Source of the DNA: an uncultured Candidatus Micrarchaeota archaeon
GTDB lineage: Archaea > Micrarchaeota > Micrarchaeia > Anstonellales > Anstonellaceae
DNA: 59,057 nucleotides
Assembly (NCBI GenBank): GCA_903892905.1
Contig: CAITKI010000066.1
Location: forward strand, 1-59,057
Direction: 5' to 3'
The position numbers and the translations under genes are program-made. Below the pieces are notes generated by a model. That model was not told the origin of the DNA, made no database searches, and worked only from the letters and a program-made list of their open reading frames with translations. Below are positions 21,627-49,373 of this stretch, piece by piece. Position 1 is the stretch's first letter. Every line of letters begins with the position of its first letter.

Positions 21627-22247
21627 TCAAACTGGCGGCATGCATTTCACAATCCAATCCCTGCCAATCTGCTTTTTTGTTATTTGCTGGCCCTCAATGT
21701 AGGTAATGTACTCAAAGCCAAGTGACTTGTAGTCAAGCGTGCCTGGCGATGCGCTGGAGTTCTGGCAGATTGAGGATGCACCGCCAATATAAGGACCTGT
21801 TGACGTGCCTGTTATTGCGACAATATGCCAACCGCAAGCAGTGCCAAACAGGCTGGACGATGCAAAATACTTCTCTTCTCCTGGTCCAAGGTAAAAGTAA
21901 TCGCTGATGCTTTTGGTGCCCGCTGCCCCTGCGCAACTAGCGCCATAAAACTGTATTATGCTTGTGCCATCTCCGCCTACTATCTTTGTTATCCTTATTG
22001 GCTGCACGCCGTTGTTCCTAAGTCTCAAATAAAGATATGTGTCTCCACTTACAGAATACGCTCTCGCCCCACTCTCAACAATCGAAATGGGCGTTGCGCT
22101 TTGCCAATACATCTGCGACTGTGTTATCTGCGAATCCGACGCCATCCCCGGGAAAAAGCCGAGCAAAGCAACACTTACGAGCGCTACGATTAGGACAACG
22201 GCGAGTAGAACAAGATACTCCGTAGCCCCCTGCGCGCGTAGTTGCAT
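21627..22247 (-). CDS. class III signal peptide pilin-like protein, paralog 1 of a 3-member family
   Basis: MQLRAQGATEYLVLLAVVLIVALVSVALLGFFPG. The N-terminal about 55 aa and C-terminal about 50 aa (ICQNS.ASPGTLDYKSLGFEYI.Y..GQQITKKQ.G.DWIVKCMPP) are shared with 31100-31948 and 33830-34678. ATG confirmed at 22247. Confidence 0.8.
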   Translation of the reverse strand: MQLRAQGATEYLVLLAVVLIVALVSVALLGFFPGMASDSQITQSQMYWQSATPISIVESGARAYSVSGDTYLYLRLRNNGVQPIRITKIVGGDGTSIIQFYGASCAGAAGTKSISDYFYLGPGEEKYFASSSLFGTACGWHIVAITGTSTGPYIGGASSICQNSSASPGTLDYKSLGFEYITYIEGQQITKKQIGRDWIVKCMPPV

Positions 22248-22256
22248 GCCTATTGC

Positions 22257-22280
22257 GGGGGGGGGGGCGGAACTTTTATA
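22257..22280 (-). promoter_or_regulatory. pilin promoter: TATA (tataaaag on minus strand, 22273-22280) and 11-nt homopolymer (G11 on plus strand, 22257-22267)
   Basis: Minus strand reads tataaaagttccg-C11-gcaataggcATG. The TATA is 26 nt from the ATG. The same promoter is found at 34679-34708 with C9. Confidence 0.6.
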
Positions 22281-22290
22281 CATATCGTCT

Positions 22291-23561
22291 TTACATGTCA
22301 ATTTCACTCAGCAAGGGAAGTCAAATCCACTGGCATCCTACTTCCGAAACCTTCATAAGCAAAATAATTGATAATAAAACTATGAAAATGAGAACGTATC
22401 GTTTCAGAATATATCCTTCAAAAGCGCAGGAGAAGCAGATGTGCCAACACCTCTGGCTAGCAAAGAATCTGTGGAATGACCTCCTCGAACATAGCAAAGA
22501 GCTGTACAGAAACTTTGATAAGTTTCCAACAAGAAACTCATTGCAATTGATGGTCAAGGACACCGGCATGTTCTCACAAACATCCCAAGAGATAGCCCAT
22601 CGTGTTGAAAATGGCATCTGGAGATATATGAAGCTTAGGAAAGCCGGAAATAAAAAAGCGGGCTTTCCGCGCTTTAGATCCGCTGATAGAATGAAAAGCC
22701 TCAACTATCCGCAATTTGGTTTCTTCCTTGAAAAGAAACTCAAGGTAAATCCATTTGGAGAAATTCCTATTGTGCGGCACAGAGAGGTAAACGGCAAAAT
22801 AAAGACGCTGACACTCAAAAGAGAGGCATCTGGAAAGTGGTTTGCTTGTTTTGCAGTTGAAGAACCCCCTGCCATCAGGCTGGCGAACGGTGGCTCGAGG
22901 ATAGGTATTGACCTTGGATTGAGGGTATTGGCAACCCTTTCCAACGGTTCAAAGATAAACAATCCCAGGCATATTAGAAAGCACCAGGAGAAAATCGCCT
23001 TCCTACAGAGACTAAGTAATAGGAAAAAGAAAGGAGGAAAAAACAGAGTAAGGGCTAAGCAGAAAGTTGCCGTTGAGTTTGAGAAGCTTAAGAACGTAAG
23101 AAGGGACTTTCTGCACAAGCTATCAAAAAATCTAGTCGATTCATATTCTTTCATTGCCCTGGAAGACCTGGCATCGCAGGAGCTTGCCGAGCAGAACTTC
23201 GGCAAGCAGATATATGATGCTGGTTGGGGCGAATTGGCGGACATGCTGCGCTACAAGGCTGAAAGCGCTGGTTGCGAGATCATGTTTGTCAATCCAAAGG
23301 ATACGACAAAAACATGCTGCATTTGTGGAAATATGGCGGATATGCCACTGGCAGTTCGGATATATGACTGCCACAACTGCGGCAATCATATGGATAGGGA
23401 TTTAAACGCAGCATATAACATACTCAAAAGAGCTACTGCCGGATCGGCAGAAAGTAACGCTTGTGGAGATGTCTCAAAAAAGACGTCTGTGAAACAGGAA
23501 GCCATAGCCTCGCCATCGGGCAGGTTAGGGCAGTTCACAACCTTACAGCCACTATCCTAAC
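22291..23561 (+). mobile_element. IS200/IS605-family tnpB-only (IS1341-like) element; ends not defined
   Basis: tnpB ORF without tnpA; lower GC than flanks. The left limit is bounded by the pilin promoter shared with paralog 3 (ends about 22288). The right limit is bounded by the PIN gene ATG at 23562. Subterminal inverted repeat ggaagt..acttcc at about 22316-22345. Confidence 0.55.
22382..23560 (+). CDS. tnpB: RNA-guided endonuclease TnpB (OrfB_IS605)
   Basis: N-terminus MKMRTYRFRIYPSKAQEKQM; RuvC motifs IGIDLGL, IALEDL, MDRDLNAAYNI; zinc finger CCICGN...CHNCGN; C-terminal tail NACGD..SVKQEA typical of the region that overlaps the omega-RNA. Confidence 0.9.
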   Translation: MKMRTYRFRIYPSKAQEKQMCQHLWLAKNLWNDLLEHSKELYRNFDKFPTRNSLQLMVKDTGMFSQTSQEIAHRVENGIWRYMKLRKAGNKKAGFPRFRSADRMKSLNYPQFGFFLEKKLKVNPFGEIPIVRHREVNGKIKTLTLKREASGKWFACFAVEEPPAIRLANGGSRIGIDLGLRVLATLSNGSKINNPRHIRKHQEKIAFLQRLSNRKKKGGKNRVRAKQKVAVEFEKLKNVRRDFLHKLSKNLVDSYSFIALEDLASQELAEQNFGKQIYDAGWGELADMLRYKAESAGCEIMFVNPKDTTKTCCICGNMADMPLAVRIYDCHNCGNHMDRDLNAAYNILKRATAGSAESNACGDVSKKTSVKQEAIASPSGRLGQFTTLQPLS

Positions 23562-29752: not shown

Positions 29753-29773
29753 CTGAGGCACATAATCCTTTGC

Positions 29774-31096
29774 ATGGCAAAGGCAAAATCCCCCAAACCG
29801 CCATCTTCGGAAGCGAAAGTTGGCGACTCAATCTCCGTCTCAAGCGAATCCGGCGGGCACAAGGGCATTCTCCTCCCCTCCAACAATCCTGATGCGATTG
29901 CCATCAAGCTCCCGTCAGGCTACAACATCGGAATAAGGAAGGAAAGCATCAAAAAAATGGAAGTGCTTGAGGCAGGCAAGCCTCCATCTTCGGCAGCGCC
30001 TTCCAAGAAAGCCCAGGCGCCAGCAAAGGACTTCCTATCCATCCTCGGCTGCGGCGGCACCATTGCCTCCAGAATCGACTACCGCACAGGCGCAGTGGAT
30101 GCAGCAACGTCCCCGCAGGAGCTGGTGGATGCATTTGCGCATCTTTCAAAAAAGCCGCTGCGCGCAAAATCGCTATTCTCAATATCATCCGAGGACACCA
30201 CGCACATCCACTGGCAGAAAATCGCGCAGGCTGCCGCAGACGAGATAAAGGATGGCGCGCAGGGCGTGGTGATAACGCACGGCACCGACACCATGTCATA
30301 TTCCTCCGCCGCGCTTTCCTTCATGCTGCAAAATCTTCCCTGCCCTGTGATTTTCACAGGCAGCCAGCGAAGCTCGGACAGAAGCTCGTCAGACGCGCTG
30401 CTCAACATGCAGGCGTCGCTCCTTGCCGCGGGCTCCGACCTGTCGGGCGTCTTCATCTGCATGCACGAAAACCTCTCGGACGATTCCTGCCTATTGCATT
30501 TCGGCGCAAAAGTGAGGAAAATGCACACCTCGCGCCGCGATGCCTTCCGCTCCATCAACTGCAGGCCGGCGGCGCGCGTGCTGCCCCTTCAGGGCAAGTT
30601 CGAGAAAATTTCCCAGCTCGCGCCCCCCAGAAACACTGGCAAGCTCGCGCTTGACACCAAAATAAACCCCAACGTGGCGCTCATTTACTCCTACCCTGGC
30701 ATCAAGCCTGAGATGCTCGCCTCGCTTTCAAAATACGAAGGTGTGGTGATTGCAGGCACAGGGCTTGGGCACGTGCCGTCGAACACATCCAACGACTTGG
30801 ACGCAGTGCCTGTCATCAAGGAAATCTCAGAGCTCATAGCATCAGGCATTCCTGTGGTAATCGCGCCACAGACCATTTACGGCAGGATAAACCTCAACGT
30901 CTATTCCTCCGGTCGCGTGCTGCGCGAAGCAGGCGCCATCGGGCACCTCTGTGACTTCACGCCCGAGGCGGCGTATGTGAAGCTCATGTGGGTGCTTGCG
31001 CACGAGAAGAAAATGGCGCGCGTGCGGGAAATGATGGAAAAGAGCATCGCAGGCGAGATTTCCGGGCGCTCGGAAATCGTCGATTTTGACTTCTAA
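29774..31096 (+). CDS. gatD: Glu-tRNA(Gln) amidotransferase subunit D
   Basis: Asparaginase-type motifs ILGCGGTIAS and VITHGTDTM with the N-terminal GatD-specific domain. ATG confirmed at 29774. Confidence 0.9.
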   Translation: MAKAKSPKPPSSEAKVGDSISVSSESGGHKGILLPSNNPDAIAIKLPSGYNIGIRKESIKKMEVLEAGKPPSSAAPSKKAQAPAKDFLSILGCGGTIASRIDYRTGAVDAATSPQELVDAFAHLSKKPLRAKSLFSISSEDTTHIHWQKIAQAAADEIKDGAQGVVITHGTDTMSYSSAALSFMLQNLPCPVIFTGSQRSSDRSSSDALLNMQASLLAAGSDLSGVFICMHENLSDDSCLLHFGAKVRKMHTSRRDAFRSINCRPAARVLPLQGKFEKISQLAPPRNTGKLALDTKINPNVALIYSYPGIKPEMLASLSKYEGVVIAGTGLGHVPSNTSNDLDAVPVIKEISELIASGIPVVIAPQTIYGRINLNVYSSGRVLREAGAIGHLCDFTPEAAYVKLMWVLAHEKKMARVREMMEKSIAGEISGRSEIVDFDF

Positions 31097-31099
31097 TCC

Positions 31100-31948
31100 G
31101 TGGTGATTGTTGTGGTTTGCTTGGGTAAGGCTGGACAAGGCGCGATTGAGTCGTCTTCACTCTGCTCGACGACTGCTCGCTCCCTAGGACAGGGAGCGAT
31201 TGAGTTGGCGCCTGCGCCAATGTGCTTTTTGCTAGGCAAAAAGCATCAGGCACAGAGCTGCGGCTCTGTGCTGACTGCAGGCACCTTGAAAGGTCAAGGT
31301 GCCATACGCTCGTCCTCTGGGGCGACCTATTGCCCCTTGCATGGGCAAGGGGCAACCGAATATCTCGTTCTTCTTGCAGTCGTGCTCATTGTCGCGCTCG
31401 TTTCCGTTGCCCTGCTTGGCTTCTTCCCGGGGATGGCTTCCGACTCGCAAATCACGCAGTCGCAGATGTACTGGAAAAGCGCCAGCCCGATTTCGATTGT
31501 GGAGAGCGGGGCGAAATACAAAGCCTCGGACGGGTATACGTATCTGTACTTGCGGCTTAGAAACACGGGGTCATATCCAATAAGATTAACCGCCCTGGTT
31601 GGCGGGGACGGGACGAAAATAACCCAGTATTTTGGCACAAATTGCGGCGTATCGGGCTATGCCAACATCAGCGATAACTTCTATTTTGGGCCCGGCGAGG
31701 AAAAATATTTTGCGTATATAAATGCCTTCGGATTGCCTTGCGATTTGCAGGTCGCTGCGCGAACCACGGCATCCACTAGCTATAGCGTGGGTGGCGCATC
31801 ATCGATTTGCCAGAATTCCACTGCCTCGCCAGGCACACTCGACTATAAATCATTTGGCTTCGAATATATCGTGTACATCGATGGGCAGCAGATAACCAAA
31901 AAACAAGTTGGTATGGATTGGATAGTAAAATGCATGCCTCCGATTTAA
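31100..31948 (+). CDS. class III signal peptide pilin-like protein, paralog 2, with about 80-codon in-frame upstream extension
   Basis: Core GQGATEYLVLLAVVLIVALVSVALLGFFPG begins at about 31343. The frame is open back to a GTG 3 nt after the gatD stop. No ATG or own promoter is present. A TTG at 31337 would give MHGQGATEYL. Confidence 0.7.
   Translation: MVIVVVCLGKAGQGAIESSSLCSTTARSLGQGAIELAPAPMCFLLGKKHQAQSCGSVLTAGTLKGQGAIRSSSGATYCPLHGQGATEYLVLLAVVLIVALVSVALLGFFPGMASDSQITQSQMYWKSASPISIVESGAKYKASDGYTYLYLRLRNTGSYPIRLTALVGGDGTKITQYFGTNCGVSGYANISDNFYFGPGEEKYFAYINAFGLPCDLQVAARTTASTSYSVGGASSICQNSTASPGTLDYKSFGFEYIVYIDGQQITKKQVGMDWIVKCMPPI
31149..31355 (+). repeat. array of seven perfect hairpins
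   Basis: Hand-verified stems: 31149-31174 (7 bp), 31177-31199 (9 bp), 31205-31220 (6 bp), 31223-31245 (10 bp), 31250-31271 (9 bp), 31280-31303 (9 bp), 31330-31355 (11 bp). Four G-Q-G-A coding units start at 31133, 31187, 31292 and 31343. Confidence 0.85.
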
Positions 31949-33829
31949 GTGATTGCCATGATGTGCGGGCTTGAAATACACCAGCGATTGTCCGGCAGGA
32001 AGCTGTTCTGCTCCTGCGTGCCGCCGGAAGCGGGCGAAGCGGCAGCCGCAGGGGGCGTTGATGGCGAGGCAGAATCCGAAAAATTCACGCGCCGCCTCCA
32101 CACTGTCCGCTCCGAGCTTGGCGAAGTGGACGCGGCATCCGCGGCAGAGGCAAGCCGCAGCAGGACATTCTCCTACAGCGCGCCCCTCCCTTCCACCTGC
32201 CTGGTGGAATCCGACGAGGAGCCGCCGCATACCCTCTCGCCCCAAGCGCTGCACGCCACGCTCACCATCTGCTCCCTCCTCTCTTCAACGCCTGTGGACG
32301 AGCTTTACGTGATGCGCAAGAACGTGATTGACGGCAGCAACACCTCGGGCTTCCAGCGCACTGCTATCGCAGGCATTGGCGGCTCAATTGCCACGCCGTC
32401 AGGCAAGCTTCCGATACAAACGGTTTGCATAGAGGAGGAAAGCGCAGGCATAGTTGACGGCAAGGAAGGCTCTGCGCATTACGACCTCTCGCGCCTTGGC
32501 ATCCCGCTTGTTGAAATCGCAACCTCGCCCGACTTGCGCTCAGGCAAGGAGGCACAGGAAGCCGCGCTTGCAATCGGCACCATGCTTCGCAAGACAGGCA
32601 TGGTGAGCCGCGGCATAGGTACCATCCGCCAGGACCTCAACATTTCCATCCCCCAAGGCGCGCGCGTGGAAATAAAGGGCGTGCAGGACCTCTCGCTAAT
32701 CGCGCTCACAGTGGACCTGGAGGTGGCTCGCCAGGAAAAGTTCCTCGCAGTGCTAAACGAGGCAAAATCCCGCCTCGGCGGCAGCCTCCCCCCGGAAAGC
32801 ATATTTGACGTGACCGACACATTCTCAGCCACGCAGTGCCAGATGGTGGCAAAGGCGCTTCGCGGGAAAGCGCGCGTGCTCGCGCTTCCCCTCCCGAAAT
32901 ACGCAGGCCTGCTTGGGGCCGAAATCTCCCCCAATCGCCGCTTTGGCAGCGAGCTTGCGGACTATGCGCGCGCGTTTGGCGTGAAGGGTCTGGTGCACTC
33001 GGACGAGAGCATGGAAAAATACGGCTTTTCGGACGACGAAATCTCCGAGCTTCGCATGGCGCTCTCGCTCGGCAAGGATGAGGCCTTCCTGCTGGTGGTC
33101 GCAGAGGAAAACAAGGCGCGCGCAGCGCTTTCAGCCGCGTTTGCCCGCGCGACAAACTTCACAATAATCGAAGAGACGCGCCGCGCCAACCCTGATGGCA
33201 CCTCGAGCTACATGCGCCCATTGCCTGGCCGCGCGCGCATGTACCCTGAGACCGACGTGGAGCCAATCGCAATCACGCCCGAAATGCTCTCCGCCGCAAA
33301 GAAATCCGCAAGCGCCATCCAGGCGGCGGAAGAGGAGGCAAAGGATGCGCTTTCCTCGCTTCCCGCAGAGCTTGCAGCGCAGTTGGCCGCCGCAAAGGGG
33401 CTCCTTTCACACTCGCCCTCGCACAAGAGCCGCGCGCCAACCCCCGAGCTTTCAGTTTACCTGTCCGCGCTCGAGGCGGGGATCGACAGCAAGCTTATTG
33501 CCTCCACAATCACAAACTCGCTCGGGTCCCTCAAGCGCGAAGGCGCAAATACGCGCGCGCTCGACGAGGAACGGCTCCTCTCTGCGCTTGCAGCCTGCCA
33601 GGAAGGCGTTTTCGCGCGCGCGGCGATGCAGGATGTGCTGCGCGAAATGTGCAAGGAAAGCGCACTCGCGCCTGCAGATGCAGCGCGCAAGCTTTCGCTT
33701 GAAAAAATATCCGGCTCTTCCCTTGCCAAGCTCATCAATGAAGAGAAGCTCGATTTGGCGGGATTGATGGCAAAATACCGCCTGCGCGTGGATGCAGCAG
33801 AAGCGAGCGAACTTCTCAAGAAAAAATAG
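31949..33829 (+). CDS. gatE: Glu-tRNA(Gln) amidotransferase subunit E
   Basis: N-terminal CGLEIHQRL signature; GatB/E core; C-terminal helical tail. A GTG at 31949 directly follows the pilin stop; ATGs at 31958 and 31961 are alternatives. Confidence 0.9.
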   Translation: MIAMMCGLEIHQRLSGRKLFCSCVPPEAGEAAAAGGVDGEAESEKFTRRLHTVRSELGEVDAASAAEASRSRTFSYSAPLPSTCLVESDEEPPHTLSPQALHATLTICSLLSSTPVDELYVMRKNVIDGSNTSGFQRTAIAGIGGSIATPSGKLPIQTVCIEEESAGIVDGKEGSAHYDLSRLGIPLVEIATSPDLRSGKEAQEAALAIGTMLRKTGMVSRGIGTIRQDLNISIPQGARVEIKGVQDLSLIALTVDLEVARQEKFLAVLNEAKSRLGGSLPPESIFDVTDTFSATQCQMVAKALRGKARVLALPLPKYAGLLGAEISPNRRFGSELADYARAFGVKGLVHSDESMEKYGFSDDEISELRMALSLGKDEAFLLVVAEENKARAALSAAFARATNFTIIEETRRANPDGTSSYMRPLPGRARMYPETDVEPIAITPEMLSAAKKSASAIQAAEEEAKDALSSLPAELAAQLAAAKGLLSHSPSHKSRAPTPELSVYLSALEAGIDSKLIASTITNSLGSLKREGANTRALDEERLLSALAACQEGVFARAAMQDVLREMCKESALAPADAARKLSLEKISGSSLAKLINEEKLDLAGLMAKYRLRVDAAEASELLKKK

Positions 33830-34678
33830 TTAGAATGGTGGTCCGCACTTCACTATCCACTCCTTTCCAATCTGCCTTTTTGTTATCTGCTGTCCCTCCA
33901 CATACTGGATATACTCAAAGCCAAGCGTTTTGTAATCAAGCGTTCCTGGCGACGTGGTGGAGTTCTGGCATACTGAAGCGGCGCCTCGGACATTATTGTT
34001 TGAACTAGTGCCGCCAACATACGAGGCTATGTACCTATTGCAAGCCAACCCATACCAGCTGCCACCAACACCAATATATTTCTCTTCACCCGGCGCAAGA
34101 TAGTAGTAGTCACTGAAATTCGCATATGGGTTGGGCAGCCCGCAAGAGCCATCTGCTTCAACATAAGGCGCCTTTCCGCCATCGTTTCCAATCATGCCAG
34201 TTATCCTTATCGGGTACATTCCTGCATTCCTTACTAACAGGTAAGGAAACGTATTGCCACTATTCGTTGATGCCCTCGCTGCGCTTTCCACAATCGAAAT
34301 CGGGCTTGCGCTTTTCCAATACATTTGTGATTGCGTTATCTGCGCGTCGCTTGCCATTCCTGGGAAGAAGCCGAGTAGAGCCACGCTTACAAGAGCTACA
34401 ATTAGCACGACTGCTAAGAGAACCAAGTACTCAGTGGCGCCTTGGCCAACCAAGGCGCCTGCAGTTGCACCCGAGTGCAACTCAATCGCACCCTGCCCGA
34501 GCTGGGGACCGATTTGTCGGCGCACCGAGCTACTTGGCGGCGCTCCGCCAAGTGCTCCACTTGCGCCGCGGCGCAAGTCGGACAAATGGTCCACCCGAGC
34601 CGCGGCTCGAGTCGGACGATAAGTTGTGCCGCGGCACAACTGTGTGGCACCTTGACCTGCACGCGCGCGTAGTTGCAT
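33830..34678 (-). CDS. class III signal peptide pilin-like protein, paralog 3, with 70-codon insertion in the leader
   Basis: MQLRARAGQGAT-[70 aa]-EYLVLLAVVLIVALVSVALLGFFPG. Promoter and first codons match paralog 1. The stop codon abuts the gatE stop with no spacer. Confidence 0.75.
   Translation of the reverse strand: MQLRARAGQGATQLCRGTTYRPTRAAARVDHLSDLRRGASGALGGAPPSSSVRRQIGPQLGQGAIELHSGATAGALVGQGATEYLVLLAVVLIVALVSVALLGFFPGMASDAQITQSQMYWKSASPISIVESAARASTNSGNTFPYLLVRNAGMYPIRITGMIGNDGGKAPYVEADGSCGLPNPYANFSDYYYLAPGEEKYIGVGGSWYGLACNRYIASYVGGTSSNNNVRGAASVCQNSTTSPGTLDYKTLGFEYIQYVEGQQITKRQIGKEWIVKCGPPF
34436..34641 (-). repeat. array of six perfect hairpins/palindromes plus an enclosing long-range stem
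   Basis: Hand-verified: 34436-34459 (10 bp), 34463-34482 (8 bp), 34532-34553 (9 bp), 34559-34578 (20-nt palindrome), 34596-34609 (14-nt palindrome), 34622-34641 (20-nt palindrome). A 12-bp stem pairs 34506-34518 with 34581-34592. Three palindromes share a gCCGCGGc core. Confidence 0.85.
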
Positions 34679-34687
34679 GCCTATTGC

Positions 34688-34708
34688 GGGGGGGGGAGAA
34701 ACTTTTAA
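34688..34708 (-). promoter_or_regulatory. pilin promoter copy 2: TATA (ttaaaag on minus strand, 34702-34708) and 9-nt homopolymer (G9 on plus strand, 34688-34696)
   Basis: Minus strand reads ttaaaagtttct-C9-gcaataggcATG. The TATA is 24 nt from the ATG at 34678. Confidence 0.6.
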
Positions 34709-34783
34709 TCATATCTCGCGCTTTTTGGGAAAAGCGCGCGTTTCAAGGCAAGGGTTATATTCTTCATAGCCGCAATCACATCC

Positions 34784-39382: not shown

Positions 39383-39437
39383 GCGAACTAGAGGGTTTTC
39401 TCCATCTTATTCGAGCAAGCTCGAATTCTGGAAAAGA

Positions 39438-39911
39438 CTAAAGCGTCTTTTCCAACAATGACAGCGCCTTCTTTATTTTCTCAAAAGAAGAGTCCATCCT
39501 CTGCTTGTATACGTATGAAAGTGCGGAAGCGAGGTTGCTGTCCTCCTGCATGGGCGCGAGCACGAAGCGGTACTTGCGCGATTTCGCCTCGATGATGCCC
39601 AGCTTCTTCAGCTGCAGCAGATGGTAGCGCACTGCTTTCGGGTTCGGCTCCTCCTTCTTTATTTCCTTCACTTTCTCCAGTATCTGATAGATGTCAGGGT
39701 CTGCCCCGCCATGCCTTTTATTGAAGTGGAAGTAAAGCAGCGCCTCAAGCACTTCCAGCAAGCCAGCGCGCGTCTCATTGGGCGATATCAGGCCAAGCGA
39801 CAAGGCGAGCCAGCGCACCAATGACTTGCGCGTCATCTTCACCTCTTCGTTGAACTGCAGGTCGCGCACCAGGCACTCCCCGCGGATGAGCTCGCTCTCA
39901 GGCATTCCCAT
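39438..39911 (-). CDS. winged-helix transcriptional regulator
   Basis: AVRYHLLQLKKLGIIEAKSRKYRF wing-type segment. Confidence 0.55.
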   Translation of the reverse strand: MGMPESELIRGECLVRDLQFNEEVKMTRKSLVRWLALSLGLISPNETRAGLLEVLEALLYFHFNKRHGGADPDIYQILEKVKEIKKEEPNPKAVRYHLLQLKKLGIIEAKSRKYRFVLAPMQEDSNLASALSYVYKQRMDSSFEKIKKALSLLEKTL

Positions 39912-48213: not shown

Positions 48214-48234
48214 ATTGGAATCTTCGATTCCAAT
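48214..48234 (-). other. intercistronic 9-bp hairpin between hydB and hydA
   Basis: attggaatc-ttc-gattccaat, hand-verified, inside the 79-nt hydB-hydA spacer. Confidence 0.5.
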
Positions 48235-48248
48235 TCTGAAAAAGTTGT

Positions 48249-49373
48249 CTACAACTTTTTCATGAACGCGTCATAATCCTTCGGGAAATGCTGCAGGCTT
48301 GTCAGTATGTGGTTGCCGCACGTCTGCCCCAGGCCGCAAAGCGCGGTGTCCTGGATGTGGGTGGCAAGCTCGCGCATGAGCTCCAGGTCCTTCCTCACCG
48401 CCTTCCCAGTCCTCACTTTCTTGAGCAGGTTGAGCATGCGTATGGTGCCCTCCCTGCAGGGCGTGCACTTGCCGCACGACTCGTAAGTGTAGAATTTTGC
48501 AATGGAATAAGCGACGTCCACCACATTGTTCGTCTCGTCGATGAAAATGATGCTGTACGCCCCGTGCTGGCACTTCTCCATATTGATGGTCTCCGGAGTC
48601 ACGGACATGTTCTCGTCCACAGGCATTATGCCCCCGAAGCAGCCGAACGACATGGCCTTGAGCTTCTTTTCCGGGCGCGCCACATCTATTATGGTGGACA
48701 TCCTCACGCCAAGCGGGAACTCGTACACTCCGGGGTTTTTCACATTGCCCGATATCGAGAAAAGCCGAAGCGAGCTGTCCCAGTCATCAAACAGCACAGC
48801 CTGCGCAGCGCATGCAAGCGTCTCCACGTTGTTAATCACAGTGGGCTTGCCCCAGAGCCCGTGCGTGGTCGGGTTGGGCGGCTTGCACATCGCATTGCCC
48901 CTAAAGCCCATTATGGACTGCAGAAGCGCGGTTGCCTCGCCGCATATGTATGCCCCTGCCCCCCTCACAATCTCGATTGTCACGCCTTCCATCTTTGCGC
49001 GCGCAAGCACATCATCCACCTGCTCCTGCAGCCTCGGGCGGAGGTAGTCATATTCCCCCCTCAGGTAGATGAAGCACCTCTTGGCGCCCACCGCGTAAGC
49101 AGCGATAAGCATCCCTTCCACCAGCGTCTCGGCATTGTGCCGGATTATCAGCTTGTCCTTGAAAGTGCCGGGCTCTCCCTCGTCTGCGTTGCACACCACG
49201 AACCTCTCGTCGGCCGGGGCATCCCTGCACGTTTTCCACTTCTTGGCAGTGGGGTATGCCGCGCCGCCCCTGCCCTCAAGCCCCCGCTTCTCAATCAGGG
49301 CAATGGTGCCATCGGGCCCAAGCGTACGCGCCTTCTCCAGCGCCTCCAGTTTGGTCTGCCGTAATATCTGCAT
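48249..49373 (-). CDS. hydB: NuoF-like NAD(P)H/FMN-binding hydrogenase subunit, minimal form (374 aa)
   Basis: GRGGAAYPTAKKW, NADEGEPGTFKD, 4Fe-4S motif ESCGKCTPCREG...CGLGQ. No additional ferredoxin-type CxxCxxCxxxCP domain at either end. Confidence 0.9.
   Translation of the reverse strand: MQILRQTKLEALEKARTLGPDGTIALIEKRGLEGRGGAAYPTAKKWKTCRDAPADERFVVCNADEGEPGTFKDKLIIRHNAETLVEGMLIAAYAVGAKRCFIYLRGEYDYLRPRLQEQVDDVLARAKMEGVTIEIVRGAGAYICGEATALLQSIMGFRGNAMCKPPNPTTHGLWGKPTVINNVETLACAAQAVLFDDWDSSLRLFSISGNVKNPGVYEFPLGVRMSTIIDVARPEKKLKAMSFGCFGGIMPVDENMSVTPETINMEKCQHGAYSIIFIDETNNVVDVAYSIAKFYTYESCGKCTPCREGTIRMLNLLKKVRTGKAVRKDLELMRELATHIQDTALCGLGQTCGNHILTSLQHFPKDYDAFMKKL

Follow-up and report, generated by a model that had tools for sequence, protein, structure and literature searches.

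How does a gene stay open through a leader made up largely of palindromic DNA, and how did the palindromes come to lie there? The question is raised by a pilin-like gene, here called P1, between gatD and gatE on contig CAITKI010000066.1 of an uncultured Candidatus Micrarchaeota archaeon, all 59,057 nucleotides of which form the window analyzed here. The open reading frame (ORF) of P1 runs uninterrupted from 31100 to 31948 in the frame of gatD, with a single TAA (31094-96) between the two. An initial look at the letters alone (the sequence-only reading) had claimed that this frame stays open from the gatD stop into the pilin-like core, as the ORF table shows, and had described seven back-to-back perfect hairpins and four repeated GQGA motifs in the leader. 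We propose, with a probability of roughly 0.58, that the leader is a composite array of palindromic modules, lying in frame inside a cleavable class III signal peptide and tolerated because this part of the protein is discarded.

To begin with the hairpins, we found seven perfect inverted repeats in 31149-31355 (stems of 7-11 bp, loops of 2-12 nt), as the sequence-only reading had described, and an eighth, imperfect hairpin (Table 1). Over the window as a whole, 207 nt contain on average 0.26 perfect stems of 7 bp or more, versus 7 in this interval, and four or more such stems are reached only by the P1 leader and by the leader of a paralogue, P2 (34436-34660). We folded 31097-31360 as RNA and obtained -131.7 kcal/mol; 200 dinucleotide shuffles gave -99.8 ± 5.2 kcal/mol (z = -6.1), and not one of them folded as well. 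A shuffle test had been named earlier as one that could overturn the observation; instead, both measures show more hairpin structure than chance would give. Random synonymous recoding of P1 and P2 weakens the fold; much complementarity survives it nevertheless, since it is the palindromes that dictate the amino acids. An Rfam search of 30900-31500 at E values up to 10 returned two chance-level hits and none at E < 1.

The array is built of repeated units. We collected 170 pilin-centred loci (910 kb) with 186 unique QGATEY sites, 61 of them with a terminal hairpin. The common module is 51 nt long and consists of a codon copy of Gln-Gly-Ala-Thr/Ile-Glu/Gln (CAR GGN GCN AYH SAR), hairpin A, a linker and hairpin B. 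Hairpin A reads AGTYG, three variable base pairs, a TCKG-type tetraloop and CRACT, and the commonest stem feet are its own (AGTTG and AGTCG); stems of this type number 47 in leaders and 10 elsewhere. Hairpin B follows a TAT or GCW linker, and its 5' arm is the reverse complement of the next CARGGNGCNA; it is thus an inverted copy of that sequence, with the cleavage-site codons making its 3' arm. Two subtypes of the module occur, QGAT[QR]..YCPLxG and QGAIE..AGTLx[GA]. The P1 leader consists of three modules of 54, 51 and 51 nt, the second one interrupted by an insertion, and GQGA is indeed found four times in its frame, with Gln codons at 31136, 31190, 31295 and 31346. The accompanying claim that every GQGA unit forms the 3' arm of a hairpin holds for three of the four, each in a perfect hairpin, and fails for the first (31133-44).

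Covariation across relatives had been suggested as a check, and we carried it out. We aligned 32 distinct units. Pairing held in 96.1% of pair cells, versus 32-43% in slid controls; double changes were seen at 11 of 19 pairs and in 125 cells, a level reached by none of 500 shuffles, showing that the stems are kept by compensation. G.U pairs filled only about 4 of 608 cells. Across the 61 arrays, 149 hairpins contained 1,336 Watson-Crick pairs and 18 single mismatches (10 A.C, 6 G.T and 2 C.C). Such symmetric, wobble-free pairing is unlike the outcome of selection on a sense-strand RNA and points to palindromes at the DNA level or to a templated correcting process.

The reading frame is conserved alongside the stems. 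We searched at the DNA level, in any frame, for QGA copies upstream of the mature start and found spacings of 48, 51, 54, 57, 99, 102, 105, 138, 153, 156 and 210 nt, with 61 of 62 spacings a multiple of three. Stop codons in 53 arrays numbered 1 in the pilin frame versus 44 and 27 in the other two. On this comparative evidence the open frame is under selection. The peptide varies: TGCAGGCACCTTG is translated as TAGTL or CRHL, with loop lengths compensating, and the CTTTTTGC hairpin reads CFLLGKKH in P1 and PLFARQKE in locus L002. In short, the palindromes and the open frame are conserved and the peptide is not.

The insertion in unit 2 of P1 is a 54-nt element of two hairpins, belonging to a second palindrome family and located at the CAA^CT foot of hairpin A. 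This family was all that BLASTN recovered when we compared the 61 arrays with 734 kb of pilin-masked loci; because the modules are too short and variable for BLAST, we used covariance models (A1 and R1) and pattern searches. Model R1 matched P1 at 31220-31275 (72.2 bits, E = 4.6e-16) and, across the 910 kb, matched 16 places at more than 60 bits, some of which are duplicate contigs. Copies in leaders were exactly 54 nt in all six that were measured, and the seventh (L112) fits the model over the same span; intergenic copies were 53-60 nt, with only a 5' flanking A in common. We then compared filled and empty sites directly. Without its 54 nt, unit 2 of P1 matches the uninterrupted 51-nt unit of L105 at 58 of 61 positions, and L014 set against L001 again shows a 54-nt insertion, in the opposite orientation to that of P1. 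In both comparisons exactly 54 nt lie at a CRA^CT hairpin-A foot, and at neither site did we find a target duplication beyond one ambiguous base. Judged by these comparisons, the nested element is a true insertion. A third module, GGTCC-ACTTG..CAAGT-CGGAC, was found antisense in P2, sense in L098 and intergenic in L031, and the modules work in either orientation.

A six-frame motif scan identified three pilin-like paralogues in the window (P1, P2 and P3). The second array (in P2), the short-leader gene P3, the modular units and the wide spread of the feature had all escaped the sequence-only reading. The P2 leader is as long as that of P1, at about 78 codons; it contains hairpin A/B units as well as antisense copies of the third module, and its QGA codons lie at 34654, 34495 and 34444, the last being the mature Q+1. 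P2 and P3 have in common a TATA box, a poly-C tract, the GCAATAGGC motif, the ATGCAACTACGCGCGC start, the ATG and the residues MQLRA, and P3 therefore represents the array-free state. Compared with P3, P2 has 73 extra in-frame codons between an ordinary leader and an ordinary mature N-terminus.

P1 belongs to a large family. We found more than 1,270 relatives in protein databases (E ≤ 0.001), all from metagenome-assembled genomes (MAGs) of Candidatus Micrarchaeota/Micrarchaeia (DPANN), with about 30 paralogues in one MAG. Among 120 listed relatives, about three quarters have leaders of 3-12 residues and about a quarter have arrays, the latter with 1-3 extra modules behind a leader of the usual M-x-[KR]-[AG] form. 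The mature N-terminus, QGATEYLVLLAVVLIVALVSVALLGFFPG, shows almost no variation across the family: Gln at +1 follows a Gly/Ala at -1, Glu stands at +5, and the chain continues as a hydrophobic helix of about 20-22 residues. The central domain is variable. Pfam matches stayed below their cut-offs (PF01917, 20.1 bits against 29.5; PF04021, 11.2 against 23.7), and an NCBIfam search gave no hit for these pilin-like proteins. AlphaFold2 predicted for P3 helices at 8-30 and 33-50 followed by beta strands in a beta-sandwich (mean predicted local distance difference test score 89.7), and Foldseek returned weak matches to the archaeal pilins 8fk7 and 8q30 (E = 3e-3 to 1e-2). The designation pilin-like is therefore supported by predicted architecture and not by a curated family hit. 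We considered whether array genes are pseudogenes and ruled this out, as the mature part has a normal length of 170-260 codons in 42 of 52 of them, versus 56 of 93 short-leader genes. Array genes are scattered and form no single clade, with mean N-terminal DNA identities within and between the two classes of 79.7, 78.5 and 78.5%.

The mechanism that we propose would work as follows. Insertion would be one source of modules and duplication between QGA direct repeats the other, and selection would act solely as a filter that keeps a length divisible by three, no stop in the pilin frame and Gly or Ala at -1. Translation would begin at an ordinary start upstream of the array and pass through it, and the extra peptide would be discarded when prepilin peptidase cuts before the last QGATEYL. 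The palindromes themselves would act as strand-symmetric elements of DNA, not as structures of the sense-strand RNA, and they may bring the cell an added benefit such as expression tuning or recombination. Of the explanations first floated for this leader, the in-frame palindromic element in a cleaved leader is the best supported, given the free peptide, the spacings in multiples of three, the intergenic copies and the empty sites.

The choice of start codon bears on this mechanism. The deposited P1 protein, P0001 (242 aa), begins at an ATG (31220-31222) that consists of A 31220 and the TG of the inserted element, which means that the insertion created the start codon chosen by the gene caller. 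P1 has no ATG upstream of its array; a candidate start is the GTG at 31112, with GTG 31100 or 31103 possible too. In P2 and many other genes the array is preceded by the homologous ATG and its promoter, and gene callers sometimes choose starts within the hairpins (LHG/, LLG/ and LQG/, where a slash marks the cleavage site).

Several observations weigh against this account. The residue at -2 of the last junction is basic in only 13 of 61 array genes versus 98 of 114 short-leader genes; the canonical basic -2 ([KR][AG]) stands before the first QGA only, and the P1 and P2 leaders end in HG/ and VG/ after about 78 residues, compared with MQLRA/Q in P3. FlaK needs basic residues at -2/-3, and PibD is more tolerant (PMC4187195). 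Efficient cleavage at the last junction is therefore an assumption. Among the collected loci, we found no informative pair of genes that share at least 95% of their first 120 nt and differ in array content, and so saw no recent mobility, gain or loss. The 51-nt unit was found only in these leaders, which leaves local duplication as an alternative to transposition for its origin. Units also persist in genes whose mature part is about 44% identical to that of P1 (L039 and L040), and the stems have many compensated variants; junk evolving neutrally would be expected to degenerate, which implies either selection for hairpin formation or a templated process that corrects the palindromes. The covariance model found no extragenic copy of the 54-nt element within the window, and no transposase was tied to any module, although no search aimed at Y1 HUH transposases was made.

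The foremost alternative, which we regard as unlikely though by no means negligible, is that the array is a selected regulatory structure, in which very stable 5'-terminal stem-loops, in a message that is leaderless (P2) or internal to an operon (P1), would be tuning mRNA stability, translation rate or premature termination and so setting the expression levels of paralogues. The compensation of stems over deep divergence, L039 and L040 included, speaks for this, as does the finding that native codons fold better than 100 of 100 recodings for the same protein (z = -2.8 for P1 and -2.6 for P2). Arrays begin within about 30 nt of the start codon, and the nested element puts a T5 tract (31226-30) on the sense strand; oligo-T is the archaeal terminator signal. 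It is difficult to reconcile such a role with the near absence of G.U pairs, with A.C mismatches at least as common as G.T, or with modules that occur in both orientations and match no Rfam family. Moreover, three quarters of the family have no array, and the arrays differ widely in content, holding anywhere from 1 to about 7 hairpins.

Two further readings give the DNA palindromes a function. In the broader one, which we hold to be quite unlikely, the arrays are DNA devices: strand-symmetric, QGA-flanked hairpins would serve as reversible locks or recombination initiators that choose which of the dozens of Micrarchaeota paralogues are matured or exchanged, remodelled by mini-elements that target hairpin feet. 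If this were true, a DPANN episymbiont would have a hairpin-based system of phase or antigenic variation, together with a new class of site-specific mini-elements seeding the arrays. The narrower one, a reversible lock, is decidedly improbable in our view. Here the array would part the canonical [KR][AG] from the hydrophobic helix, and a precise, hairpin-stimulated deletion between QGA repeats would restore the short leader; such deletion, or exchange at cruciform breaks, would produce phase or antigenic variation. Slippage deletion classically acts on direct repeats on either side of a palindrome, the arrangement seen here. Consistent with a lock, unit number ranges from 1 to 4 between genes, a basic -2 is largely lost at the last junction and retained ahead of the first QGA, the family has undergone enormous expansion and has a variable central domain, and the poly-C tracts of the promoters vary in length, a hint of other switching. 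Set against these points, we found no near-identical pair of genes with different array content, paralogues differ at many synonymous sites in their N-terminal DNA with no sign of recent gene conversion, and the strictly in-frame, stop-free state argues that the long form is translated and either useful or harmless.

It is very improbable that the repeated G/QGA[IT]E acts as a peptide, whether as several peptidase or decoy sites or as a source of released 17-residue peptides. The sequence-only reading had raised the possibility of several peptidase sites, and it is true that each unit repeats the -1 Gly/Ala, the +1 Gln and often the +5 Glu of EppA-type substrates (PMC4187195) and that variation in the first QGA copy falls mostly at third codon positions. 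Between the QGA copies, though, the peptide shows no conservation, with one and the same DNA translated in different frames, internal sites are without the hydrophobic helix that normally follows a cleavage site, and the third-position variation is explained by covariation in hairpin B and by the two unit subtypes, which makes the peptide conservation a by-product of DNA repeats. Finally, an untranslated spacer or start-sequestering RNA switch with its real start at a TTG in the last hairpin, giving the leader MHG/QGATEYL, is hardly credible: the TTG is present at 31337-39, callers sometimes pick such starts and P1 is without an upstream ATG, but the -3 codon at the last junction (TTG in 42, CTG in 11 and ATG in 3 of 61 arrays) mirrors CAA/CAG, so that the buried TTG is a by-product, as the reverse complement of the Gln codon in an inverted repeat, and the spacings in multiples of three, the 44- and 27-fold depletion of stops in the pilin frame only, the scarcity of G.U pairs, the missing Rfam match and the homologous upstream starts with promoters all stand against it.

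Table 1. Positions of the modules, genes and element copies described in the text (window coordinates unless a locus is named)
Feature	Position	Strand	Details
gatD	29771-31096	+	NCBIfam NF003217 (482 bits); TAA stop 31094-96, same frame as pilin ORF
Shine-Dalgarno-like GGTGAT and candidate GTG start	31102-07; 31112-14	+	leader MVCLGKAG before first QGA
Unit 1	31136-31189	+	54 nt; QGAIES; hairpin A 31149-55/31168-74; hairpin B 31177-85/31191-99
Unit 2	31190-31294	+	105 nt = 51-nt unit + 54-nt insertion; QGAIEL
Unit 2 hairpins			A 31205-11/31214-20; B 31280-89/31294-303
Unit 3	31295-31345	+	51 nt, subtype I, QGAIRSSSGATYCPLHG; hairpin A 31310-25 (T.G pair); hairpin B 31330-40/31345-55
Stem 1	31149-55/31168-74		7 bp, 12-nt loop
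Stem 2	31177-85/31191-99		9 bp
Stem 3	31205-11/31214-20		7 bp
Stem 4	31223-32/31236-45		10 bp
Stem 5	31250-58/31263-71		9 bp
Stem 6	31280-89/31294-303		10 bp
Stem 7	31330-40/31345-55		11 bp
Eighth hairpin	31310-31325		imperfect, one T.G pair
Nested element (family 2)	31221-31274	+	TGTGCTTTTTGC-TAG-GCAAAAAGCA-TCAG-GCACAGAGC-TGCG-GCTCTGTGC-TGA
Nested-element copies in leaders		sense	window (P1), L062, L105, L112
Nested-element copies in leaders		antisense	L014/L079, L161, L134
Nested-element copies, intergenic			L012, L037/L102, L038/L079, L083 (directly after tRNA-Pro), L149 (two)
Mature P1 pilin-like protein	31346-31948	+	begins at Q+1 of QGATEYLVLLAVVLIVALVSVALLGFFPG
gatE	31958-33829	+	NCBIfam NF003107 (611 bits)
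P2, whole gene	33830-34678	-	
P2 leader	34445-34678	-	78 codons, nearly all perfect hairpins; GQGATQL, GQGAIEL, GQGATEYL
Mature P2	33830-34444	-	
P3	21627-22247	-	canonical 5-residue leader MQLRA/QGATEYL (reads on as QGATEYLVLL)

A pilin gene between gatD and gatE is an unusual arrangement, and the genes are tightly packed: the P1 stop abuts the gatE start (31946-31960), and the stop codons of gatE and P2, on opposite strands, lie directly side by side (33827-33832). The closest short-leader relative, P0002, belongs to a tandem pilin cluster instead of lying between gatD and gatE, and thus provides no orthologous empty site for P1. Its contig (ERZ1426827, 25,424 nt) has three tandem family members of 224, 209 and 235 aa, with a Peptidase_A24 (prepilin peptidase) gene about 3 kb from the cluster, beside a family-B DNA polymerase; its presence there is in keeping with the proposed cleavage. 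Upstream of many family members we observed the same promoter layout of AATAAAAG, TTCG, a poly-C of 6-11 bases, GCAATAGGC and ATG (window 22245-22290 and 34676-34720, both on the minus strand; L009, L015, L024, L027, L032, L057, L078, L105 and others). The poly-C length varies, with C11 at P3 and C9 at P2; a homopolymer of variable length in this position, with the TATA box on one side and a leaderless start on the other, is a candidate tract for slipped-strand phase variation.

We also observed many intergenic clusters of perfect hairpins in the genomes of relatives. Runs of 3-5 perfect hairpins lie beside tRNA genes (tRNA-Pro, tRNA-Ser and tRNA-Ala; L083 5034-5178 and 13074-13151, L137 11961-12088), and an ORF-poor stretch of about 860 nt (L149 1-860) is full of hairpins, including two copies of the 54-nt type. 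Pairs of perfect hairpins with A/T runs, such as TGAAAAAGTTGTCTACAACTTTTTCA, lie between gene ends in the window (39409-39454, 48214-48262 and 34717-34738); they resemble bidirectional terminator-like or repetitive extragenic palindromic (REP)-like elements, and similar pairs occur in L007, L010, L027, L065 and L114. The only insertion sequence (IS)-related gene in the window is a lone TnpB gene at 22385-23560 (+), divergent from the P3 promoter and assigned to the RNA-guided endonuclease family NF040570 (269 bits). No TnpA adjoins it, and the 132-aa ORF directly after it appears PIN-like by eye and has no NCBIfam hit. The TnpB gene has no similarity to the 54-nt element, and the element model found no match in or near it. 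In viral contigs, neither the 54-nt element nor the pilin N-terminus was present.

Three other identities were considered and rejected. The 54-nt element ends like a C/D-box small RNA (...GAUG CUGA) but has no C box, and this identity was rejected. An archaeal bulge-helix-bulge intron does not fit, as the stems are perfect, without 3-nt bulges, and frame conservation implies translation. The opening 57 nt of the sequence encoding the mature protein were dismissed as a source of the unit, since the two share only an 8-mer, in a different frame.

We searched the literature and found nothing on palindromic arrays in archaeal pilin leaders, in keeping with the earlier statement that no described equivalent in archaeal pilin genes was known to the reader; in-frame, selfish-DNA-like arrays in this position thus appear to be undescribed. 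The proposed array would be a natural example of dual constraint, in which palindromes are conserved, the frame is open and the peptide is free. In practical terms, gene callers mis-start array genes, as with the P0001 ATG that belongs to the inserted element, and signal-peptide predictors that assume short leaders may miss them. DPANN genomes also appear to hold undescribed families of REP-like palindromes, with an apparently specific insertion site for the 54-nt element. Pili probably play a central part in the attachment of Micrarchaeota to their hosts, so that any effect of the arrays on processing or expression would bear on symbiosis.

How, then, does this locus compare with known systems? 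Structured cis-regulatory RNAs are a poor match, with no Rfam match at E < 1 and about 4 G.U cells in 608. EppA-type class III signal peptides carry the motif QxSxExxxL, and archaellin leaders are 6-12 residues long (PMC4187195). The family studied here resembles EppA-type pilins in its Gly/Ala at -1, Gln at +1, Glu at +5, hydrophobic helix of about 22 residues and beta-sandwich, and differs from those short archaellin leaders in that P1 and P2 have about 78 residues and array genes are mostly without a basic -2 at the last junction. In Neisseria, a G-quadruplex DNA lies beside the variable pilin gene pilE; here too non-B DNA lies by the 5' end of a pilin gene in a multicopy family, although the hairpins are inside the ORF and we found no evidence of recombination. 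Miniature inverted-repeat transposable elements have terminal inverted repeats and target-site duplications; the 54-nt element shows no duplication, and the direct QGA repeats that accompany the 51-nt unit are not identical, differing at synonymous sites. Among small mobile elements, those of the IS200/IS605 type, such as the haloarchaeal palindrome-associated transposable elements (PATEs), are hairpin-ended and duplication-free. The 54-nt element is similar in having two hairpins, no duplication and insertion at CRA^CT on either strand in two comparisons; it is much smaller, its intergenic copies have no more than the flanking A in common, and no cognate TnpA was found.

REP sequences are short (about 18-26 nt), stable stem-loops with a family consensus (PMC12306157). 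As in REP sequences and bacterial interspersed mosaic elements, the modules here are multicopy, often clustered, intergenic and near gene ends and tRNA genes. REP sequences seldom overlap coding sequence, whereas the arrays lie inside an ORF with other copies intergenic, and no transposase of the REP-associated tyrosine transposase (RAYT) type turned up, no search aimed at Y1 transposases having been made. Rickettsia palindromic elements (RPEs) insert into ORFs without shifting the frame, and the additional peptide that they encode leaves the product unharmed (PMC10969869). The palindromes of the pilin leaders likewise lie in frame in a coding gene, where their translation is suggested by frame conservation. 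RPEs are bacterial, about 100-150 bp long and found in many unrelated genes; the modules here are archaeal (DPANN), 51-54 nt long, stacked and, within genes, seen only in the leader of one family, with no sequence relationship to RPEs expected. Another difference is that one hairpin here is made of the cleavage-site codons themselves. If our reading is correct, selfish DNA of the Rickettsia type within genes extends to archaea, where it occupies the discarded part of a secreted protein.

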